Virus record (IMG/VR): IMGVR_UViG_3300037124_000033
Location: 1-55,195 of that record
DNA: 55,195 bases
From: a virus
Taxonomy: Duplodnaviria; Caudoviricetes
Reading direction: 5' to 3' (one strand)
A program made the translations under genes and the position numbers. A model generated the notes under the pieces. It was not told the origin of the DNA. It made no database searches and saw only the letters and a list, made by a program, of their open reading frames with translations. This document shows positions 1-6,353 of this stretch, piece by piece. Position 1 is the stretch's first letter. Each line of letters opens with the position of its first letter.

Positions 1-131
1 ATTTATCGTAGAGACCAGCTATCACTGCGGTCGTAGCAATATCATTGTCAGCTGTTTGTATCGAATCGTTCACACACTCAAGTGCTGTAATACCTGCACG
101 TGTCCACTCCTCCTTAGCCGCGCAATTCATC
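1..131. repeat. Terminal direct repeat, copy 1 (circular overlap with 55065-55195)
   Basis: 1-131 equals 55065-55195 except position 5 (A) vs 55069 (G); 6-131 is an exact 126-bp match. Confidence 0.97.
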
Positions 132-748
132 TGTCGCGGACAGTATCGACAAGCGTCATAGCTCGGGCCATACTGGTTTGGCTCGGCAACCTGCCCAATC
201 AACTCTTCTTGTAGCCGGTCAAGGTCTTCGTTACGAAACTTGTGGATACGAACCTCACCGATCCGCACCCAGACCTCTGCGCCAAGTATGTAACCACGAT
301 CTGGCATGCCATGCTCAGCACGCAATAGATAGGCGTAGCTACGAATTTGATTCGGATGTTCCGATGGCGACCAACCGAACTTCCAATCGAGCACGGCGTG
401 GCCGGTCACACTGACGAGATCCGATGTGCCGCGTAGAGTGATTTCGTCTGATAGATCGGCAGCCATATGGCATTCGCAGTTTGGGGTTGGATACCACTTT
501 GCAAGCTCTTCCCACGCCTCGCTAGCTCGCCGAGCCATGCCATCCAACACATCTGGGTCGACGCTATATCTGTCGGCTACTTGTTCAATCGTTGGGCCAG
601 TGCCAGTAACAGATCTCGGCATACATGCGTGGCCAGCTGTACCTTCAACCGCCTCTGGGTTATTCGGCGAATATGGCGCATCAGTTGGAATGAGGCTTCC
701 GGCACATTGTAGCGCACGGTCGGTCGAGCTGCATCTTATGGTGATCAT
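1..748 (-). CDS. Cas4-like PD-(D/E)XK exonuclease (DUF2800-like), 5' part; continues across the junction to 54715
   Basis: My translation from ATG 748: MITIRCSSTDRALQCAGS...EAVEGTAGH...ACRYCPRQMNC. One N-terminal Cys plus CxxCxxxxxC fits a Cas4/AddB Fe-S staple. In frame with the 54715..55194 ORF; about 365 aa in total. Confidence 0.8.
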   Translation of the reverse strand, partial: MITIRCSSTDRALQCAGSLIPTDAPYSPNNPEAVEGTAGHACMPRSVTGTGPTIEQVADRYSVDPDVLDGMARRASEAWEELAKWYPTPNCECHMAADLSDEITLRGTSDLVSVTGHAVLDWKFGWSPSEHPNQIRSYAYLLRAEHGMPDRGYILGAEVWVRIGEVRIHKFRNEDLDRLQEELIGQVAEPNQYGPSYDACRYCPRQMNCAAKEEWTRAGITALECVNDSIQTADNDIATTAVIAGLYDK

Positions 749-750
749 AA

Positions 751-951
751 TCAGTCCTCTATGCCTTCCACCTTGGTGCTCGCATGAGTTAGGAGTTCCA
801 TATAATCAAGAATATCCGTATCACCGTTATCCAAGCTTTGCTGTTCTGCCGCAGCGCATTCGTGGATGGTCTTAGCACCATTATAGTATTTATCATACTT
901 GGATGGATCAACATCAATAGTCATTGTCACAACGAATCTAAGCTTTGGCAT
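751..951 (-). CDS. Hypothetical protein (66 aa)
   Basis: AAGGA RBS; packed between the TasA-like and Cas4-like genes. Confidence 0.7.
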   Translation of the reverse strand: MPKLRFVVTMTIDVDPSKYDKYYNGAKTIHECAAAEQQSLDNGDTDILDYMELLTHASTKVEGIED

Positions 952-1882
952 TGTTGCTTTCCTTGTTGTTTAATGCGTGCCATTCTTCCCAGAGATCGCG
1001 GATCAAAAGTTTTTCCGTATAGCGCTTTGCTCTGTTGTGCGCATGGGCCTTAGTCATCTTCTTATCGCGCTTAAGCTCGTACGCTTTCCTCGTATCATAT
1101 ATGCGTCGATACTCACCAGCGTCTTCGCCCTTACCTTGGGATTTGATTATGCAGTCCCCCAGTGTCCACACAGCAGACCGCCTGGTTGGAGAATAGCCCA
1201 TCTCGATGGCGAGCTCTCTGTCAAGCGTCTTGCACTGTCGTTTGCCCCTAATGACTGCAAGCCCTAGCCGCTTCCACACTTTGGCTGGATTGGCGTACAG
1301 AGACAAGTCACCAGTCTCACCGATGATGCATGCCAGATTTGTGCGCCCAAACCCCTTTACAGTATCTACCCATGAGCAGACAGGAAGCTTGGCAGCGAGC
1401 TTTGTCATGTCCGCACGAAGCACTTTTTCCGAACGCTCGATTGTATCACGAGCGTTGAACATTGGCTTGCACCAAAGGTAAGCCTTGGTGGCACTGCCGT
1501 GATGGTGTTCAAGTTCCTCATGGCCACCAAGGCTTACATCGGCAGCAGCAATATGTTGGGAATCACTCTCCTGGTGGCTGCCAATACCTTTGTGAATCTT
1601 GCAGATCTTCTTATAGAGATCGTCCGCGCGTTTCAATCCCTTCTTGTCGTTCTTCCCCTTGACGTCGACAAACCTCCGACAGACAGCCTTGATACGATTC
1701 GTCAGTGCTGTTTTTATGCGGACTAGATCATTCCGCTGCGCTTTTAGCTCGCGCAACGTTTCGCAGATAGGACCGAGTCCGCCGGCATAATTGGTTTGGG
1801 TATCATTGGCAAGGTGGCCAACGGACTCGGATTGAGCAGACATTCCTTCCATGGGCCTCACTGGTTTTTTGGTCTTGCTCAT
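938..1882 (-). CDS. TasA-like Nop-domain RNA-guided DNA-binding protein (related to the IS110/IS116 C-terminal domain; no nuclease domain)
   Basis: Coiled coil (LRELKAQRNDLVRIKTALTNRI), then VKGFGRTNLACIIGETGDLSLYANPAKVWKRLGL and HAHNRAKRYTEKLLIRDLW. No N-terminal DEDD RuvC, no HNH, no IS110 catalytic SG loop. GAGGA RBS; TIGR-like units flank and interrupt it. Confidence 0.85.
   Translation of the reverse strand: MSKTKKPVRPMEGMSAQSESVGHLANDTQTNYAGGLGPICETLRELKAQRNDLVRIKTALTNRIKAVCRRFVDVKGKNDKKGLKRADDLYKKICKIHKGIGSHQESDSQHIAAADVSLGGHEELEHHHGSATKAYLWCKPMFNARDTIERSEKVLRADMTKLAAKLPVCSWVDTVKGFGRTNLACIIGETGDLSLYANPAKVWKRLGLAVIRGKRQCKTLDRELAIEMGYSPTRRSAVWTLGDCIIKSQGKGEDAGEYRRIYDTRKAYELKRDKKMTKAHAHNRAKRYTEKLLIRDLWEEWHALNNKESNNAKA
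1478..1537 (-). ncRNA. TIGR-like stem-loop guide unit 5 (inside the TasA-like CDS)
   Basis: GTAAGCCTTGGTGG-CCA-TGAGGAACT-TGAACACCA-TCACGGCAG-TG-CCACCAAGGCTTAC; perfect 15-bp stem; 60 nt = 20 codons. Confidence 0.87.
1538..1585 (-). ncRNA. TIGR-like stem-loop guide unit 4 (inside the TasA-like CDS)
   Basis: ATTGGCAG-CCA-CCAGGAGAG-TGATTCCCA-ACATATTGC-TG-CTGCCGAT; 48 nt = 16 codons. Confidence 0.85.
1773..1830 (-). ncRNA. TIGR-like stem-loop guide unit 3 (inside the TasA-like CDS, N-terminus)
   Basis: CCGAGTCCGTTGG-CCA-CCTTGCCAA-TGATACCCA-AACCAATTA-TG-CCGGCGGACTCGG; 14-bp stem with 2 G-U pairs. Confidence 0.85.
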
Positions 1883-1905
1883 ATCTTTCCTCGCTCGTAG
1901 TGGTT

Positions 1906-1953
1906 CTGGCAGGCACGGTCAGTTTGGTTAACAGAGCCGGTATGGCCTGCCAG
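1906..1953 (-). ncRNA. TIGR-like stem-loop guide unit 2 (intergenic)
   Basis: CTGGCAGG-CCA-TACCGGCTC-TGTTAACCA-AACTGACCG-TG-CCTGCCAG; 9-bp stem. Confidence 0.88.
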
Positions 1954-1957
1954 GAAT

Positions 1958-2003
1958 ATTGGAGCACGCCACGAATGGGTAACATCACCTCTTTGGCTCC
2001 AAT
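1958..2003 (-). ncRNA. TIGR-like stem-loop guide unit 1 (intergenic)
   Basis: ATTGGAG-CCA-AAGAGGTGA-TGTTACCCA-TTCGTGGCG-TG-CTCCAAT; 8-bp closing stem. Confidence 0.88.
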
Positions 2004-2527
2004 TACTTCGATACTTCCCTCATGAACCGCTTCAGATCCGTTTCGGTAAAAACTTCGGAAACAGGTCTATCGTCTGGCATGCCATCTGCGATGGCTGCTA
2101 GCCATTGCCCACGCCTTGCTTTGCTCTTAGCAACACGATCGTATGACGCTGCGGTCGCAAGCACATCGCCCTTCATGGCCGACCCAAGTGGTAATCCATC
2201 CAATAAACGGAAGTCCATCAATGAAGCCGCCGCATGCCTTAGCCGTTTACCTCGCTGGTCTTGTTGGATTGGCTTCTTCTCTTTCTTCTCTTTCTTCTTG
2301 CCATGCTCTTTGATTTTGATTGGGACATAGTCATCGATGGCTTGCTGACAAGCTTGGCGAAGGAACGGATCAGTCAATAGCCGCCAGAGTAGCTTGTCTT
2401 TGCGAGCGGCATCCTCAAGGAATGAGACCGCAGTTTGGCTATCTCTTGTCTTCTCTATTGCTTCTGAAACGGAGCGTTTCAGGAAGACCATGTTTGAGTT
2501 TTCAGTTGTACCATCCCGCATTGCCAT
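2003..2527 (-). CDS. Hypothetical protein directly upstream of the guide units (candidate Tas-associated protein)
   Basis: 174-aa basic, helical-looking ORF whose stop codon overlaps the first base of unit 1; start uncertain. Confidence 0.7.
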   Translation of the reverse strand: MAMRDGTTENSNMVFLKRSVSEAIEKTRDSQTAVSFLEDAARKDKLLWRLLTDPFLRQACQQAIDDYVPIKIKEHGKKKEKKEKKPIQQDQRGKRLRHAAASLMDFRLLDGLPLGSAMKGDVLATAASYDRVAKSKARRGQWLAAIADGMPDDRPVSEVFTETDLKRFMREVSK

Positions 2528-2539
2528 CTCACGGTAAAG

Positions 2540-2590
2540 CTGCTTGACTGGTGGTCGCCACTATAGCACCCAAGACCACCAGTCAGGCAG
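2540..2590. other. 17-bp inverted repeat/hairpin in the leader of the leftward operon
   Basis: CTGCTTGACTGGTGGTC (2540-2556) pairs with GACCACCAGTCAGGCAG (2574-2590), one non-Watson-Crick pair. Confidence 0.7.
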
Positions 2591-2656
2591 ACTTACTGCC
2601 ATTTCAAAAAACATGTGCACCTAATTCATCCTGACTCCTTTCGTCTCAATTTCAGA

Positions 2657-2794
2657 CACTGTGGCCCACCAGACATCTAGTGTCAAGCACAAAATTCGAC
2701 AGACACCATCTATATATACGTTCGTGCTAGCATGTAGTAGCTCTTTGTCTTTTTTTATTGGTGCTTGACAAACGAATCTAAGTGTGTCTAAATA
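2657..2794. promoter_or_regulatory. Divergent sigma70-type promoter region
   Basis: Leftward TTGACA-17-CACAGT (about 2686->2658); rightward TTGACA at 2765-2770 with TAAATA near 2789; separates the leftward TasA/recombination genes from the rightward HTH-ParB-helicase genes. Confidence 0.6.
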
Positions 2795-2813
2795 TGCACC
2801 ACAGGAGGATGAG

Positions 2814-3023
2814 ATGAGTCTGAAAAAAATGGGCGAGGCAGTCAGAAGCACTCGGGAGATGAGAAAACTCTCTATCAGAGAGTTAGCAAGGCGCGCGGAC
2901 ACAAATCCAAATACGATTCTCAATCTTGAAAAGACTGGAGAAGTCACAGTCAAGACGCTGCTGAAAGTGGCAAAAGCGCTGAAGGCCAAGGCAAGCGATT
3001 TCCTATACGTAGGTGAGAGGTGA
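2814..3023 (+). CDS. XRE/Cro-family HTH regulator
   Basis: LSIRELARRADTNPNTILNLEKTG..TLLKVAKALK; GGAGG RBS before ATG 2814. Confidence 0.9.
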   Translation: MSLKKMGEAVRSTREMRKLSIRELARRADTNPNTILNLEKTGEVTVKTLLKVAKALKAKASDFLYVGER

Positions 3024-3026
3024 ACG

Positions 3027-3995
3027 ATGGAAAAACGCAAGACAATGATCGTCAATCCAAAGGATCTCATCCCACCGAAGGGACACGTAATCGATCGGGA
3101 CCTCGTAAACTCGATCGCCGAGTCGATTCCGAAATGTGGCCTACGTCAGCCGATTGTCGTAGTTGGGCGCCACATCAAGCATGGTGTCCATCGCTGGGCG
3201 GCAGTGTGCGAACTCGGGCTCAACCGCGTCGAAGTGATCGTTGACGAAAAGGTCGAGACTGGTGAGGAGCACGACGCTCAGGTGATCGTCGAAAATCTCT
3301 GTCGGCGCCACTACAAGGGGTCAGAGTTGGATGCCATGCGAAAAAAGCTTGTGGACCTGTGGGCGCCTCAGATCGCCCAGGAGATGCAAGATTCGAAAAA
3401 ATCCCCTGACGGGGGGGAATCAGAATTAGAACCCAAGAAGTCTCCTGGGAGGAAGAAGACTCCAAAAGGAGAAGCTATTCGTCAGGTCGCAAAGCAAACA
3501 GGCGCGACGGAAAAAGCAGTACAGAGGTCCGTCGAGAAAACGAAGGCAGCCGAAGCCGGCGTCACTCCCAAGCAGCCCGACGATCCACCACCACCCGATG
3601 AGCCCGAGGCAACCATCGACGACTACGACAATGAAATCCCCGAGAGCGAGGGTGATCGGTGGGGCAAAACCAAGGCGCTGTTTTACGATATCAATACCAT
3701 AATGCGAGGCGTACAACTCAAGCTCACTGAGATCGAAAAACTCAACGGCATCCCGAAGTCAGTCGCGGCCGATCTCCACAAGCGCGCACAGCAATTCGCT
3801 GAGCTAGCCTGGAACTATCGCCCAGTAGCTCTGTGCGAGTGGTGCAACGGCACGGGCAAGAATCCAGGCAACACCAATGATTGCCCCCATTGTGTAGGGG
3901 TTGGATTCATTGCCGAGGTGAATTACGATCCACAAAAGAAGCCCGCTACAGCTGAGAAGGAGCCATCTTTTACCGAAGACGATTTGGATTGGTGA
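3027..3995 (+). CDS. ParB-N-domain protein with HTH and C-terminal CxxCxGxG zinc finger
   Basis: SIAESIPKCGLRQPIVV..IKHGVHRWAA, ENLCRRH, AIRQVAKQTGATEKAVQRS, CEWCNGTG..CPHCVGVG. Confidence 0.8.
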   Translation: MEKRKTMIVNPKDLIPPKGHVIDRDLVNSIAESIPKCGLRQPIVVVGRHIKHGVHRWAAVCELGLNRVEVIVDEKVETGEEHDAQVIVENLCRRHYKGSELDAMRKKLVDLWAPQIAQEMQDSKKSPDGGESELEPKKSPGRKKTPKGEAIRQVAKQTGATEKAVQRSVEKTKAAEAGVTPKQPDDPPPPDEPEATIDDYDNEIPESEGDRWGKTKALFYDINTIMRGVQLKLTEIEKLNGIPKSVAADLHKRAQQFAELAWNYRPVALCEWCNGTGKNPGNTNDCPHCVGVGFIAEVNYDPQKKPATAEKEPSFTEDDLDW

Positions 3996-4003
3996 GGTAA
4001 AGG

Positions 4004-4627
4004 ATGCACTTCGTAGAGGAGCTCAAGAAAATCAACGCGTGTGAAGACGCGATCGAATGGTGCGAGACACAGCCGGATCTAGAAACGGCTTGGCGTGTCT
4101 GTACACGCGGCGACTGGATGCTTTGGCTGGCTGGTAAGCTATCTGGTCCTCCTGGAGACGGTCGGAAACAACTGGTGGCGTGCGCGATGGAAGTAGCAAT
4201 GCTTGCTCGGCAGTATGCGTCGCCAGATGTACAGACGGCCATGGACCGGTGCGAGAGAGCGGTGTCTTCGTGGGCGGATGGGAGATGCACGTTTGAGGAT
4301 GTACGACGTGCCACGGCCTACATTGCCTACTATGACAACGCCGCCAACACTGCTAATATTTATGCCTACTACGCTGGCGATGCGAGCTACGTACCCAGCG
4401 CCGCCTACTACGCTGTTCGCGCCGTCTACTATGCTATCCGTACCGCCGTCGACACCATCTCTTTTGCCAACATCGCCTTCTCCGCCAATGCCAGCGCCTA
4501 CTATGTCGCTGCCAGCGCCTACGCAGCCGCAGACCACGACTATGCCGCAAAAACAAAAACTCTATCGCTAGCCGCTGACATCGTGCGCTGGCACTATCAA
4601 ATCAGTCCTGAATTTCCAGTGAGTTAA
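4004..4627 (+). CDS. Phage protein with Ala/Tyr-rich low-complexity C-terminus
   Basis: N-terminal ACEDAIEW..AWRVCTRGDWMLWL followed by a degenerate GCC/TAC codon tract at 4316-4546. Confidence 0.8.
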   Translation: MHFVEELKKINACEDAIEWCETQPDLETAWRVCTRGDWMLWLAGKLSGPPGDGRKQLVACAMEVAMLARQYASPDVQTAMDRCERAVSSWADGRCTFEDVRRATAYIAYYDNAANTANIYAYYAGDASYVPSAAYYAVRAVYYAIRTAVDTISFANIAFSANASAYYVAASAYAAADHDYAAKTKTLSLAADIVRWHYQISPEFPVS

Positions 4628-4643
4628 GCCAAGGTCGGCAACC

Positions 4644-6353
4644 ATGACCTCGCAAATCAATCTCTTCAATACATCTGCTGGCAAGCCTGAGCAGCTACCA
4701 GAGCCTGAGATTTTCCAACCATCTCAACAACTACGCGACTATCAGATCGAGGCGATCGAGGCGGTCGAAAAGGAGCTGCAAGAGAATCGAGGAACGCTCG
4801 TTCTGATTCCCACCGGCGGAGGCAAAACCCAAGTGGCATGCGAACTCATCCGCAGGTCCTCGGGTAGGTGTCTGTTCGTAGCACACCGTGACGAGCTTAT
4901 TCAGCAAGCTGCCAACCGCATCGAGCAATTTACCGGCGAGTGGCCTGACATCGAGCAGGCACAAGCAAAGGCCGATGCTCGAGGTGGTAAGCATGTAGTC
5001 GCGTCTATCCAAACACTCAGTCGTAGCAGACGTTTGGATAGATGGGATCCAGGTGAGTTTTCCCTCATCGTCATAGACGAGGCACACAGATCTATTGCGA
5101 AGACGTATAAAAAGATAATCAACTACTTCGAAGGGAAGATAATCGGGCTGACTGCAACCCCAGACCGACTAGACAAGGAGTCACTCGGTCAGGTGATGGA
5201 TTCAGTCGCGTACCGGTACGAAATCAACGACGCGATTCGGGATGGCTGGCTGTGCAACATCACCATGAAGACTATCCGAGTCGAGTCAATGGATTTTTCG
5301 AAGATCCACACCGTTGCCGGGGACTTCAACCAGGGCGAGCTAGAGCAGCTCATGCAGCTCGAACAGAATCTGCATGCGGTAGCCAAGCCAACTGTCGAGT
5401 GTGCGGGTGACCGAAAGACGATCGTATTCACAACGTCGGTTGCCCACGCCGAGCGCTTGGCCGAAATCATCGATAGGTATGCCGGCAAGCAAGCATCTAT
5501 GGTCATCCATGGCGGAACCCCAAAAGAAAAACGCAGACAGTTGCTCAGAGAATTCGACAAGGGGAAGTGGCAGTATTTCGTAAACGTGCAGATCGCAACA
5601 GAAGGATTCGACCAGCCAGACGTTTCATGTATAGTCGTCGGTCGTCCCACAAAGAGTCGCTCACTTCATTGCCAGATGATTGGGCGGGGGACTCGAGGTG
5701 GCGAGCGTTGTAGGGTTGGAGAAAAGAAAGATTGTCTTGTCCTAGACTTCGTCGGCAACTCCGGCAAACACGAGCTCGTTTGCACTGCCGATATCCTCGG
5801 CGGCAACGTCTCCCCCGAAGAACTCGAAGAGGCCAAGAAGCTGATCGAGAAGTCCGACAAGCCGAAGACAATAGACGAAGCCGTTGAAGAAGCCAAGGCC
5901 AAGATCGCACACGATCTGAGTGAATCCGCAAAGCGTCGACGGGCCAGTATCGTTGGCGACGTCGAGTACGACGTGAAGGACTTCAACCCCTTCACCATGT
6001 TTCGCGTCAAGCGGGATTACCTCAGCGAGAGGTATGGGATTGCTCCAGCTACAGAAAAGCAAATGCGGGCAATCGCTAAATGGATGGGCAAGCACGGAAA
6101 GCATGCTCCGGTGAATCTGTCGAAGCATGAGGCATCGAAGCTCCTCGCCGAGTTTGCTGGTCGACGAGAAAAGGGCCTAGCTACGTATGGACAGGTGAAA
6201 TTCCTTGCGACGAAAAAGCTAGACGCGCGCGGCTGGACCTTTCACCAGGCGAGTCAAGTGATTACGTGGTGCTCCAGGAATGGATGGAGAAATCCTCCGC
6301 CAAGTGTGGTAGCATCAATCACCAGAGGTCGAGAGCCAGGAGAAGAGGGATGA
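4644..6353 (+). CDS. Superfamily II DEAH helicase (ResIII/Irc3-like)
   Basis: LRDYQ, PTGGGKT, DEAH, TATP, TEGFDQP, QMIGRGTR motifs. Confidence 0.95.
   Translation: MTSQINLFNTSAGKPEQLPEPEIFQPSQQLRDYQIEAIEAVEKELQENRGTLVLIPTGGGKTQVACELIRRSSGRCLFVAHRDELIQQAANRIEQFTGEWPDIEQAQAKADARGGKHVVASIQTLSRSRRLDRWDPGEFSLIVIDEAHRSIAKTYKKIINYFEGKIIGLTATPDRLDKESLGQVMDSVAYRYEINDAIRDGWLCNITMKTIRVESMDFSKIHTVAGDFNQGELEQLMQLEQNLHAVAKPTVECAGDRKTIVFTTSVAHAERLAEIIDRYAGKQASMVIHGGTPKEKRRQLLREFDKGKWQYFVNVQIATEGFDQPDVSCIVVGRPTKSRSLHCQMIGRGTRGGERCRVGEKKDCLVLDFVGNSGKHELVCTADILGGNVSPEELEEAKKLIEKSDKPKTIDEAVEEAKAKIAHDLSESAKRRRASIVGDVEYDVKDFNPFTMFRVKRDYLSERYGIAPATEKQMRAIAKWMGKHGKHAPVNLSKHEASKLLAEFAGRREKGLATYGQVKFLATKKLDARGWTFHQASQVITWCSRNGWRNPPPSVVASITRGREPGEEG

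Follow-up and report, generated by a model that had tools for sequence, protein, structure and literature searches.

The 55,195-nt record IMGVR_UViG_3300037124_000033, a phage record that is ~65% complete and along whose whole length (the window) all positions below are counted, contains a tasA gene that carries three guide RNA (tigRNA) units in frame within its own coding sequence. We read the locus as a phage-borne stem-loop TIGR-Tas system of the TasA type, consisting of a partner gene, two intergenic units, and a tasA gene with the three embedded units, and we put the probability of this reading at roughly 0.8. TIGR-Tas systems are recently described, compact RNA-guided DNA binders or cutters that need no flanking target motif. 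The open reading frame (ORF) listing and our reading of the sequence show a single, tightly packed apparent operon on the minus strand at 938–2527, in the order of a 174-amino acid (aa) ORF, two hairpins in a 120-nt gap, a 314-aa ORF, a 66-aa ORF, and a PD-(D/E)XK nuclease gene. The 314-aa ORF (938–1882, minus strand) is tasA and encodes a nuclease-less Tas protein, as assigned by a PDB profile, an AlphaFold2 model, Foldseek, and NCBIfam.

When we scanned for hairpins with stems of at least 8 bp and 26–34-nt loops and added a motif search, we found five units that share one design; all are on the minus strand within 1478–2003. Their stems are 8–15 bp long and differ in sequence, and each is closed by a G-C and then a C-G pair around a loop of exactly 30 nt. 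All five loops share CA at positions 1–2, TG at 12–13, CCA at 18–20, and T at 30. With the closing pair included, each unit reads C-CA-N9-TG-N4-CCA-N9-TG-C, which is one short motif used twice around two variable 9-mers; as RNA, the loop layout CCA-N9-UG-N4-CCA-N9-UG is invariant in all five. Unit 1 (1958–2003; 8-bp stem, 30-nt loop) has the spacers AAGAGGTGA and TTCGTGGCG, and its first base is also the last base of the partner gene's stop codon. Unit 2 (1906–1953; 9-bp stem, 30-nt loop) carries a TGA within spacer B that closes the tas frame upstream. The remaining three lie inside tasA: unit 3 at 1773–1830 (14-bp stem with two G-U pairs), unit 4 at 1538–1585 (48 nt; 9-bp stem with one G-U pair), and unit 5 at 1478–1537 (60 nt; perfect 15-bp stem). 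Minimum free energy folds retained the outer stems of all five units, with z-scores from −1.8 (unit 1) to −5.9 (unit 3), −4.2 for unit 2, −4.9 for unit 5, and −4.1 for the 108-nt block of units 4 and 5. A 14-position unit pattern gave five matches against 0.05 expected, but those five units were also the source of the pattern, which makes the test circular.

Faure et al. (2025, PMC12045711) define a tigRNA by two 8–12-nt spacers, each with CCA (box C) before it and UG (box D) after it, and describe a second type of TIGR array in which variable palindromic stems stand in place of edge repeats. The five window units fit this stem-loop description position by position. Their loop repeat (UG, four nucleotides, CCA) is 9 nt long, and 9 nt is given as the commonest loop length in stem-loop arrays in Extended Data legend 2e of Xu et al. 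(bioRxiv 10.64898/2026.09.09.750476). Judged by its boxes, by fold, and by Rfam, the locus is not a box C/D snoRNP (Nop5/Nop56/58), a class that has L7Ae and fibrillarin partners: the boxes are of the CCA/UG type and not the kink-turn RUGAUGA/CUGA type, and Nop5 is only a weak fold match of the TasA model (Foldseek probability 0.30–0.44). An Rfam scan of 1–6000 at E ≤ 1 returned no snoRNA, its sole match being a chance mir-21 hit on a separate hairpin at 2529–2601. Tandem Repeats Finder reported only a 9-nt coding repeat at 2274–2298.

According to the original prediction, the coding sequence of the effector contains, in frame, three guide units of its own system, and our analysis bears this out. 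Units 4 (1585–1538) and 5 (1537–1478) abut, and their 48 + 60 = 108 nt are codons 100–135 (IGSHQESDSQHIAAADVSLGGHEELEHHHGSATKAY) of the ORF at 938–1882, with codons 100–115 belonging to unit 4 and codons 116–135 to unit 5. Unit 3 occupies codons 18–37, in an N-terminal extension that follows a good ribosome-binding site and start codon, as predicted: the Shine-Dalgarno-like GAGGAAAG, read from the sequence at 1892–1885 on the minus strand, stands 2 nt before the ATG at 1882. The gene call of the record (304 aa) begins at a second ATG 10 codons further on, likewise ahead of unit 3. The three embedded units share one codon phase, each loop starting at a codon boundary (phase 0). The boxes are thereby read as xxC-CAx...xxT-GAx...xxC-CAx...xxT-GCx, which yields the peptide pattern [GS]H-x3-[DE]-x-[QH]-x3-A. 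The UGA formed by box D and the linker is split between codons in units 3–5 and is never read as a stop. A contrast that had been drawn between TGA in the intragenic units and TGT in the intergenic ones is true of units 1 and 2 of the window but is not general: across the loci surveyed below, the base at position 14 is A in 68 of the 127 in-frame units and also in 27 of the 67 other units, and we discarded the contrast as a rule.

The protein that these units interrupt was identified from its sequence and its fold. In the PDB, a profile built from 87 homologues matched the cryo-EM structure of TIGR-TasR (9mty) at E 1e-23 and TasH at 6e-7, with no other meaningful match, and the single TasA sequence matched 9mty at 1e-8. 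The best NCBIfam match was NF052498 (TIGR_Tas_endo; E 6.5e-27), which covers aa 141–301 only. The AlphaFold2 model (predicted local distance difference test (pLDDT) 88; predicted template modeling score 0.80) has a disordered N-terminal tail (aa 1–35), helices at aa 36–72, 80–98, and 122–163, and a helical C-terminal domain. The domains are two coiled-coil arms at about aa 36–98 and 122–163 and a Nop-type C-terminal domain at about aa 164–313. In a Foldseek search with this model, TasR came first (1.3e-5) and TasH next, and the top 10 matches were all TasR or TasH; IS621 (rank 12), Prp31, and Nop5 followed at lower ranks. No HNH or RuvC nuclease domain was found with Pfam, PHROGs, or NCBIfam, and only 35 low-confidence residues precede the coiled coil in the model. 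The protein is therefore TasA, and the locus combines a stem-loop TIGR array with this nuclease-less effector.

The model also bears on where the units sit. As the original prediction proposed, the embedding is at permissive sites, since units 3–5 fall in low-confidence parts of the protein: pLDDT is ~50 over aa 1–30, in the N-terminal tail where unit 3 lies, and 56, 49, and 67 over aa 101–130, with a low-confidence stretch at aa 99–121 between the coiled-coil arms. The placement of units 4 and 5 between the two coiled-coil helices stands with one qualification. Unit 4 lies in the low-confidence coiled-coil tip, but unit 5 takes in both the tip and the start of the second arm, its 3′ arm (~aa 122–135) being predicted to lie already within the second helix.

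We then compared the units with those of relatives. TasA homologues numbered 246 at E ≤ 1e-3 (181–526 aa), and 80 viral loci (543,780 bases) were searched with a covariance model built from the five window units and with a strict scanner (boxes with at most one mismatch, stem of at least 6 bp). Named phages supplied only three distant relatives, Gordonia phage Morrissey, Rhizobium phage RHph_X2_25, and Microcystis phage Mvi-JY20. The covariance model gave 254 matches at E ≤ 1, five of which were the window's own, and 248 of the 249 further matches lay on the gene strand. Similarly, all 216 units detected by the scanner were on the gene strand and none on the other, with at least one unit in 55 of the 80 loci. 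Among 129 distinct model matches, in an alignment that was fitted to the model, 97.8% of stem cells were paired and double-sided changes numbered 336, against 41–70 in slid controls.

Isolated non-Watson-Crick positions inside the stems were G-T/T-G in 50 cases and A-C/C-A in 16 on the gene strand (p 3e-5), an excess that points to RNA, or single strand, of the sense strand as the form in which the stems pair. This internal-position test replaced an earlier one at stem positions 6–9 (27 versus 23), which was uninformative because many stems end there. The G-T excess speaks against the hairpins acting as DNA, for instance as recombination sites, cruciform or single-stranded, of an IS110-like transposase. 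Such a role would agree with the label "transposase" that PHROGs gives TasA (PHROG 4285, 2199), with the Pfam Transposase_20 match (E 0.016), with an NCBIfam transpos_IS110 score of 35.9 bits, and with the lower-ranked fold match to IS621. However, that score is far under its cut-off of 140, no DEDD or RuvC domain is present where 35 disordered residues precede the coiled coil, and the array, with variable 9-nt segments enclosed by the boxes of its units, matches tigRNAs exactly. We regard DNA sites as barely credible. An IS110-family RNA-guided transposase was likewise rejected as the identity of the protein, with no DEDD domain in Pfam or in the model.

The closest view of how the embedded units evolve comes from a syntenic relative (L006), in which the partner gene is again present, five units lie upstream, and the gene for a 339-aa TasA contains orthologues of units 3, 4, and 5. 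The flanking tas coding sequence is 76% identical between the two loci (581/767) and the stems are 75% identical (57/76). Each embedded unit shows double compensatory change: U-A to C-G in unit 3, A-U to G-C in unit 4, and both U-A to C-G and A-U to G-C in unit 5. The spacers, in contrast, are identical at 19 of 54 positions, about the level of the fourfold-degenerate sites in the stretch of the gene without units (27/68; 40%), where codon positions 1, 2, and 3 are 85, 90, and 53% identical. Stems and boxes are thus under constraint, and spacers and the encoded peptide drift approximately neutrally. A special exchange or replacement of spacers between orthologous units is unnecessary to account for these values.

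The same comparison bears on whether the intragenic hairpins are decayed or hitch-hiking array copies that are no longer guides and are kept as harmless linker peptides. Unconstrained spacers and peptides would be expected of such copies, and one homologue (P0003) lacks units 3 and 4 in the protein alignment, so that single units can be dispensed with. Yet units 3, 4, and 5 have each kept all 10 fixed box positions, the stems keep 75% identity where fourfold sites keep 40%, and every unit carries a compensatory double change. Pairing is kept while amino acids are not, which is the reverse of the outcome (amino acids conserved and base pairing lost) that had been named beforehand as evidence against embedded guides. 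Decayed copies are thus an improbable explanation, and we favor embedded units that are conserved as RNA. At 3052–3123, L006 (and likewise P0002) has a further 72 nt inserted in frame within the N-terminal tail, with a 6-bp stem (TTCTGG/CCAGAA) and one CCA-N9-TG half, possibly a decayed unit or a long-loop unit missed by the model.

The original prediction expected homologues to show variable numbers of units at the two sites, with conserved boxes and compensatory stem changes, and this is what we observed. In the protein alignment, aa 100–135 of TasA are an insertion relative to most homologues; the tip site holds two units in P0002, one in P0003, and none in P0005–P0009. P0002 and P0003 were compared as proteins only, a metagenome scan for their DNA having given no relative. 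Units at the coiled-coil tip also occur in four loci (L028, L036, L040, and L053) whose proteins are less than 45% identical to the window TasA; L036 has two by the scanner and three by the model. Four other loci (L010, L015, L016, and L020) have a unit just before the first helix, with 17–22 of 24 stem positions, 2–8 of 18 spacer positions, and 107–116 of the next 150 nt identical, which repeats the pattern seen between the window and L006.

To see how units relate to the reading frame, we surveyed 194 distinct units from the 80 loci plus the window. The stop-to-stop frame that holds tas contains 127 of them, and 67 lie outside. Among the 127, phase 0 accounts for 78, phase 2 for 46, and phase 1 for three, all of which have TGT, so that no in-frame unit contains an in-frame UGA. 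This exclusion is partly circular because an open frame cannot hold a stop. For the units outside the tas frame, 51 of 67 would be stop-free in phase 0, 48 of 67 in phase 2, and 25 of 67 in phase 1. Within the aligned tas body, 19 units are in phase 0 and five in phase 2, the latter at the first or last codons. Sixteen loci have a protein match that begins at the conserved core, and in 13 of them it is the tas frame that stays open furthest upstream, frequently with several hundred bases to spare (p 1e-4). These upstream open frames fit the "extended disordered N-terminal regions" that Xu et al. ascribe to TasA proteins. Several loci (L019 1963–3708, L042 31–2007, L036 2398–3822, and L045 1057–2706) have their whole upstream array, 6–11 units, in the tas frame, which begins immediately behind the partner gene and contains no stop for 600–1,400 nt. 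Such frames would be either translated into very long N-terminal extensions composed of guide units or kept free of stops for some other reason.

The phase survey also addresses the idea that the [GS]H..[DE].[QH]...A peptides were selected as protein repeats, for example as His-rich linkers, and that the palindromes are incidental. The pattern does recur in the N-terminal tails of distant homologues, as GH...H...A. But the same nucleotide unit exists at non-coding positions (units 1 and 2) and, in 67 of 194 distinct units, outside the tas frame, the second codon phase (46 of 127) yields a different peptide, and the conserved residues are precisely those dictated by the boxes. Selection for peptide repeats is therefore very improbable as an explanation.

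Several observations weigh against our reading of the locus and are set out together here. The TIGR_Tas_endo score of TasA, 94.9 bits, is just below the curated cut-off of 100, and Pfam gives the protein only its weak Transposase_20 match. Which start codon is used decides whether unit 3 is translated; the three candidate ATGs (1882, 1852, and 1843) are all upstream of it, and the only start-like codon after it is a TTG two codons ahead of an invariant residue. Xu et al. describe a CUU motif at the stem base that marks processing boundaries in other stem-loop tigRNAs and is frequent but not universal; in the window, CUU is present only directly after the 3′ foot of unit 5 and is absent from the feet of units 1–4. 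Both the covariance model and the scanner were made from the window's units and detect only units with 30-nt loops. Lastly, no DNA target of any window spacer pair was found in the window, in a record that is ~65% complete: with both A/B arrangements of the five pairs and gaps of 0–3 nt, no 18-mer matched at ≤2 mismatches, the best having 3–4.

A natural target of the spacers may lie in the host or in another element. Across the related loci, the 194 units searched against the 543,780 bases gave no target at ≤1 mismatch and 12 at 2 mismatches, which we estimate to be about the chance level. A database-wide search would be swamped by chance matches because the spacers amount to only 9 + 9 nt.

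By analogy, a TasA dimer joined through its coiled coil would bind one unit through the box C/D pairs, and spacers A and B would pair with opposite strands of an 18-bp DNA target. The nuclease-less complex would then repress transcription, or block another DNA transaction, without cutting. TasA repression and gel-shift results have been published by Xu et al. The N-terminal tail and the coiled-coil tip would tolerate any peptide at the embedded units, with selection acting on stems and boxes at the RNA level and leaving spacers and peptide to drift freely. On this proposal, the three embedded units are probably made into working guides. We suggest more tentatively, and at somewhat less than even odds, that they are cut from the tas mRNA, so that guide maturation costs message. 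Cutting units 3–5 from a full-length message destroys that message, which makes the idea of negative feedback reasonable, and a putative negative autoregulation by guide maturation, as had been predicted, is plausible.

Instead, the embedded units could be real guides that arise from promoters inside tas or as TasA-protected remnants of mRNA decay, with no dedicated negative feedback. In the text of Xu et al., which we cite for this origin, maturation from the tas transcript and transcription from internal promoters are not yet distinguishable. The packing of the operon, in which the partner stop overlaps unit 1 and the 66-aa ORF overlaps the tas stop, means that ordinary mRNA turnover would supply substrate. 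On the other side, a sigma-70 consensus scan of 700–3100 on both strands found no promoter-like site, against 2.3 expected in shuffles, a negative that is weak evidence because only the consensus was scanned and the host is not identified. Moreover, excising any unit from the full-length message necessarily destroys that message. We consider an origin without dedicated feedback rather unlikely, and guide maturation from the tas message remains our tentative proposal.

The first gene of the apparent operon, the 174-aa partner ORF (2003–2527, minus strand), recurs with the system. A hidden Markov model of 21 members (E ≤ 1e-3) placed homologues immediately ahead of the array or tas, and on its strand, in 55 of the 80 loci, for example at 2150–2680 in L006 and 2400–2927 in L016; a single-sequence tblastn search with this ORF detected 23 of the 80. 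The predicted structure (pLDDT 81) consists of two all-helical parts with a disordered linker between them. We found no relative in the PDB sequence profile or the ESM Atlas, Foldseek against the PDB gave nothing below E 1.9, and Pfam searches with the 21 family members gave scattered single matches only. According to Faure et al., TasA lacks "clear associations with other proteins" save for a ParB-like gene in some dual-repeat loci, and in the searched portions of the TIGR-Tas papers we found no mention of this partner. The 174-aa protein is a candidate accessory protein of this TasA clade. Because 127 of 194 units lie in the tas frame, because these are largely restricted to two phases, and because 13 of 16 loci have their longest open frame upstream of the core in the tas frame, the guide array of this clade may lie largely inside that frame. 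If the extensions were translated, the tas message would be the main pre-tigRNA, each guide would cost one message and so set a guide-to-protein balance, and the 174-aa protein could be a maturation or loading factor. We offer this as a speculation that is unlikely to hold.

Other features surround the operon. The 66-aa ORF (751–951, minus strand) shares 14 nt with the end of tasA, including its stop codon, and weakly matches phrog_1673, to which no function is assigned; L006 seems to be without it, the nuclease gene there following tasA directly. Just upstream of the start of the 174-aa ORF, a separate strong hairpin at 2534–2596 (minus strand; 23-nt arms that are 87% complementary, 17-nt loop) is without CCA/UG boxes and is not a tigRNA unit; Rfam matches it only by the chance mir-21 hit noted above, and it could be a 5′-untranslated region structure or an operator. 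Divergent from the tas operon on the plus strand are an XRE-type helix-turn-helix gene (2784–3023) and a ParB-like gene with a C-terminal CxxCxGxG zinc-finger motif (3027–3995), both with homologues in L006. The ParB-like gene is on the strand opposite to tasA, unlike the ParB-like genes that, according to Faure et al., share an operon with some dual-repeat tasA loci. A 207-aa ORF at 4004–4627 (plus strand) is without a PHROG match and has an Ala/Tyr-rich C-terminal half with repeated AYY/YYA motifs.

Whether intragenic units had been reported before was left open by the original prediction. They have: Xu et al., in a preprint of September 2026, describe intragenic, frame-preserving tigRNAs and put forward the idea that maturation and translation are coupled. 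The central idea of embedded guides is therefore already published for this family. The window locus is a stem-loop TIGR-TasA with three of its five guides embedded in frame, a feature that was correctly observed, and its value is confirmatory, plus three details: the phase restriction, the recurrent insertion sites, and the partner gene. The codon-phase restriction and the 174-aa upstream partner are possibly new. Supplements aside, the text of Xu et al. contains no codon-phase statistics that we could find ("codon" occurs only in start and stop codons) and, equally, no recurrent insertion at the coiled-coil tip or just before the first helix. How stem-loop tigRNAs mature and how guide and protein are balanced are open questions of the TIGR-Tas field, and a gene with its own guides inside it lends itself naturally to testing how maturation might be coupled to translation. 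The window locus is a small, clean example, with two intergenic and three intragenic units in one operon and a syntenic relative, L006, with other spacers.

Among known systems, the closest are those of Xu et al., who studied Bifidobacterium longum BlTasA and made the TIGRFinder survey; BlTasA is also a nuclease-less TasA with box C/D dual-spacer hairpins both upstream of and inside tas, with the frame kept and the units in poorly ordered regions. Small-RNA sequencing of BlTasA revealed processed tigRNAs embedded in the coding sequence. The window units are without an obvious CUU boundary motif. The embedded units of BlTasA are in the wedge loop, and those of the window are in the coiled-coil tip and N-terminal tail. 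The TasA array from a Peromyscus leucopus gut metagenome (PMC12045711) resembles ours in its nuclease-less TasA and in its tandem hairpins with variable palindromic stems, and its units are processed singly in E. coli (Faure et al. 2025; structure in bioRxiv 10.64898/2026.08.11.744272). It differs in having three intergenic sub-arrays with 13 units in total, and the passages of Faure et al. that describe it do not mention gene embedding. The closest solved structure by both sequence and fold is the Thermoproteota TaTasR (PDB 9MTY). This system shares the CCA/UG boxes, 9-nt spacers A and B, and a loop repeat of the 9-nt class, but it has an N-terminal RuvC nuclease, conserved edge repeats in place of variable stems, and 36-nt processed guides (PMC12045711).

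The IS110 bridge-RNA recombinases (IS621, PDB 8WT6) have a Nop-like RNA-binding domain and a coiled coil, and their guide loops pair with both DNA strands. They differ from the window system in their DEDD/RuvC catalytic domain and in the single two-loop bridge RNA in the element end, neither of which is present at the window locus. Rickettsia palindromic elements are short palindromes that lie in frame inside protein genes at permissive sites; they are selfish and have no known link to the host gene, whereas the units of the window are the cognate guides of the very protein they interrupt.

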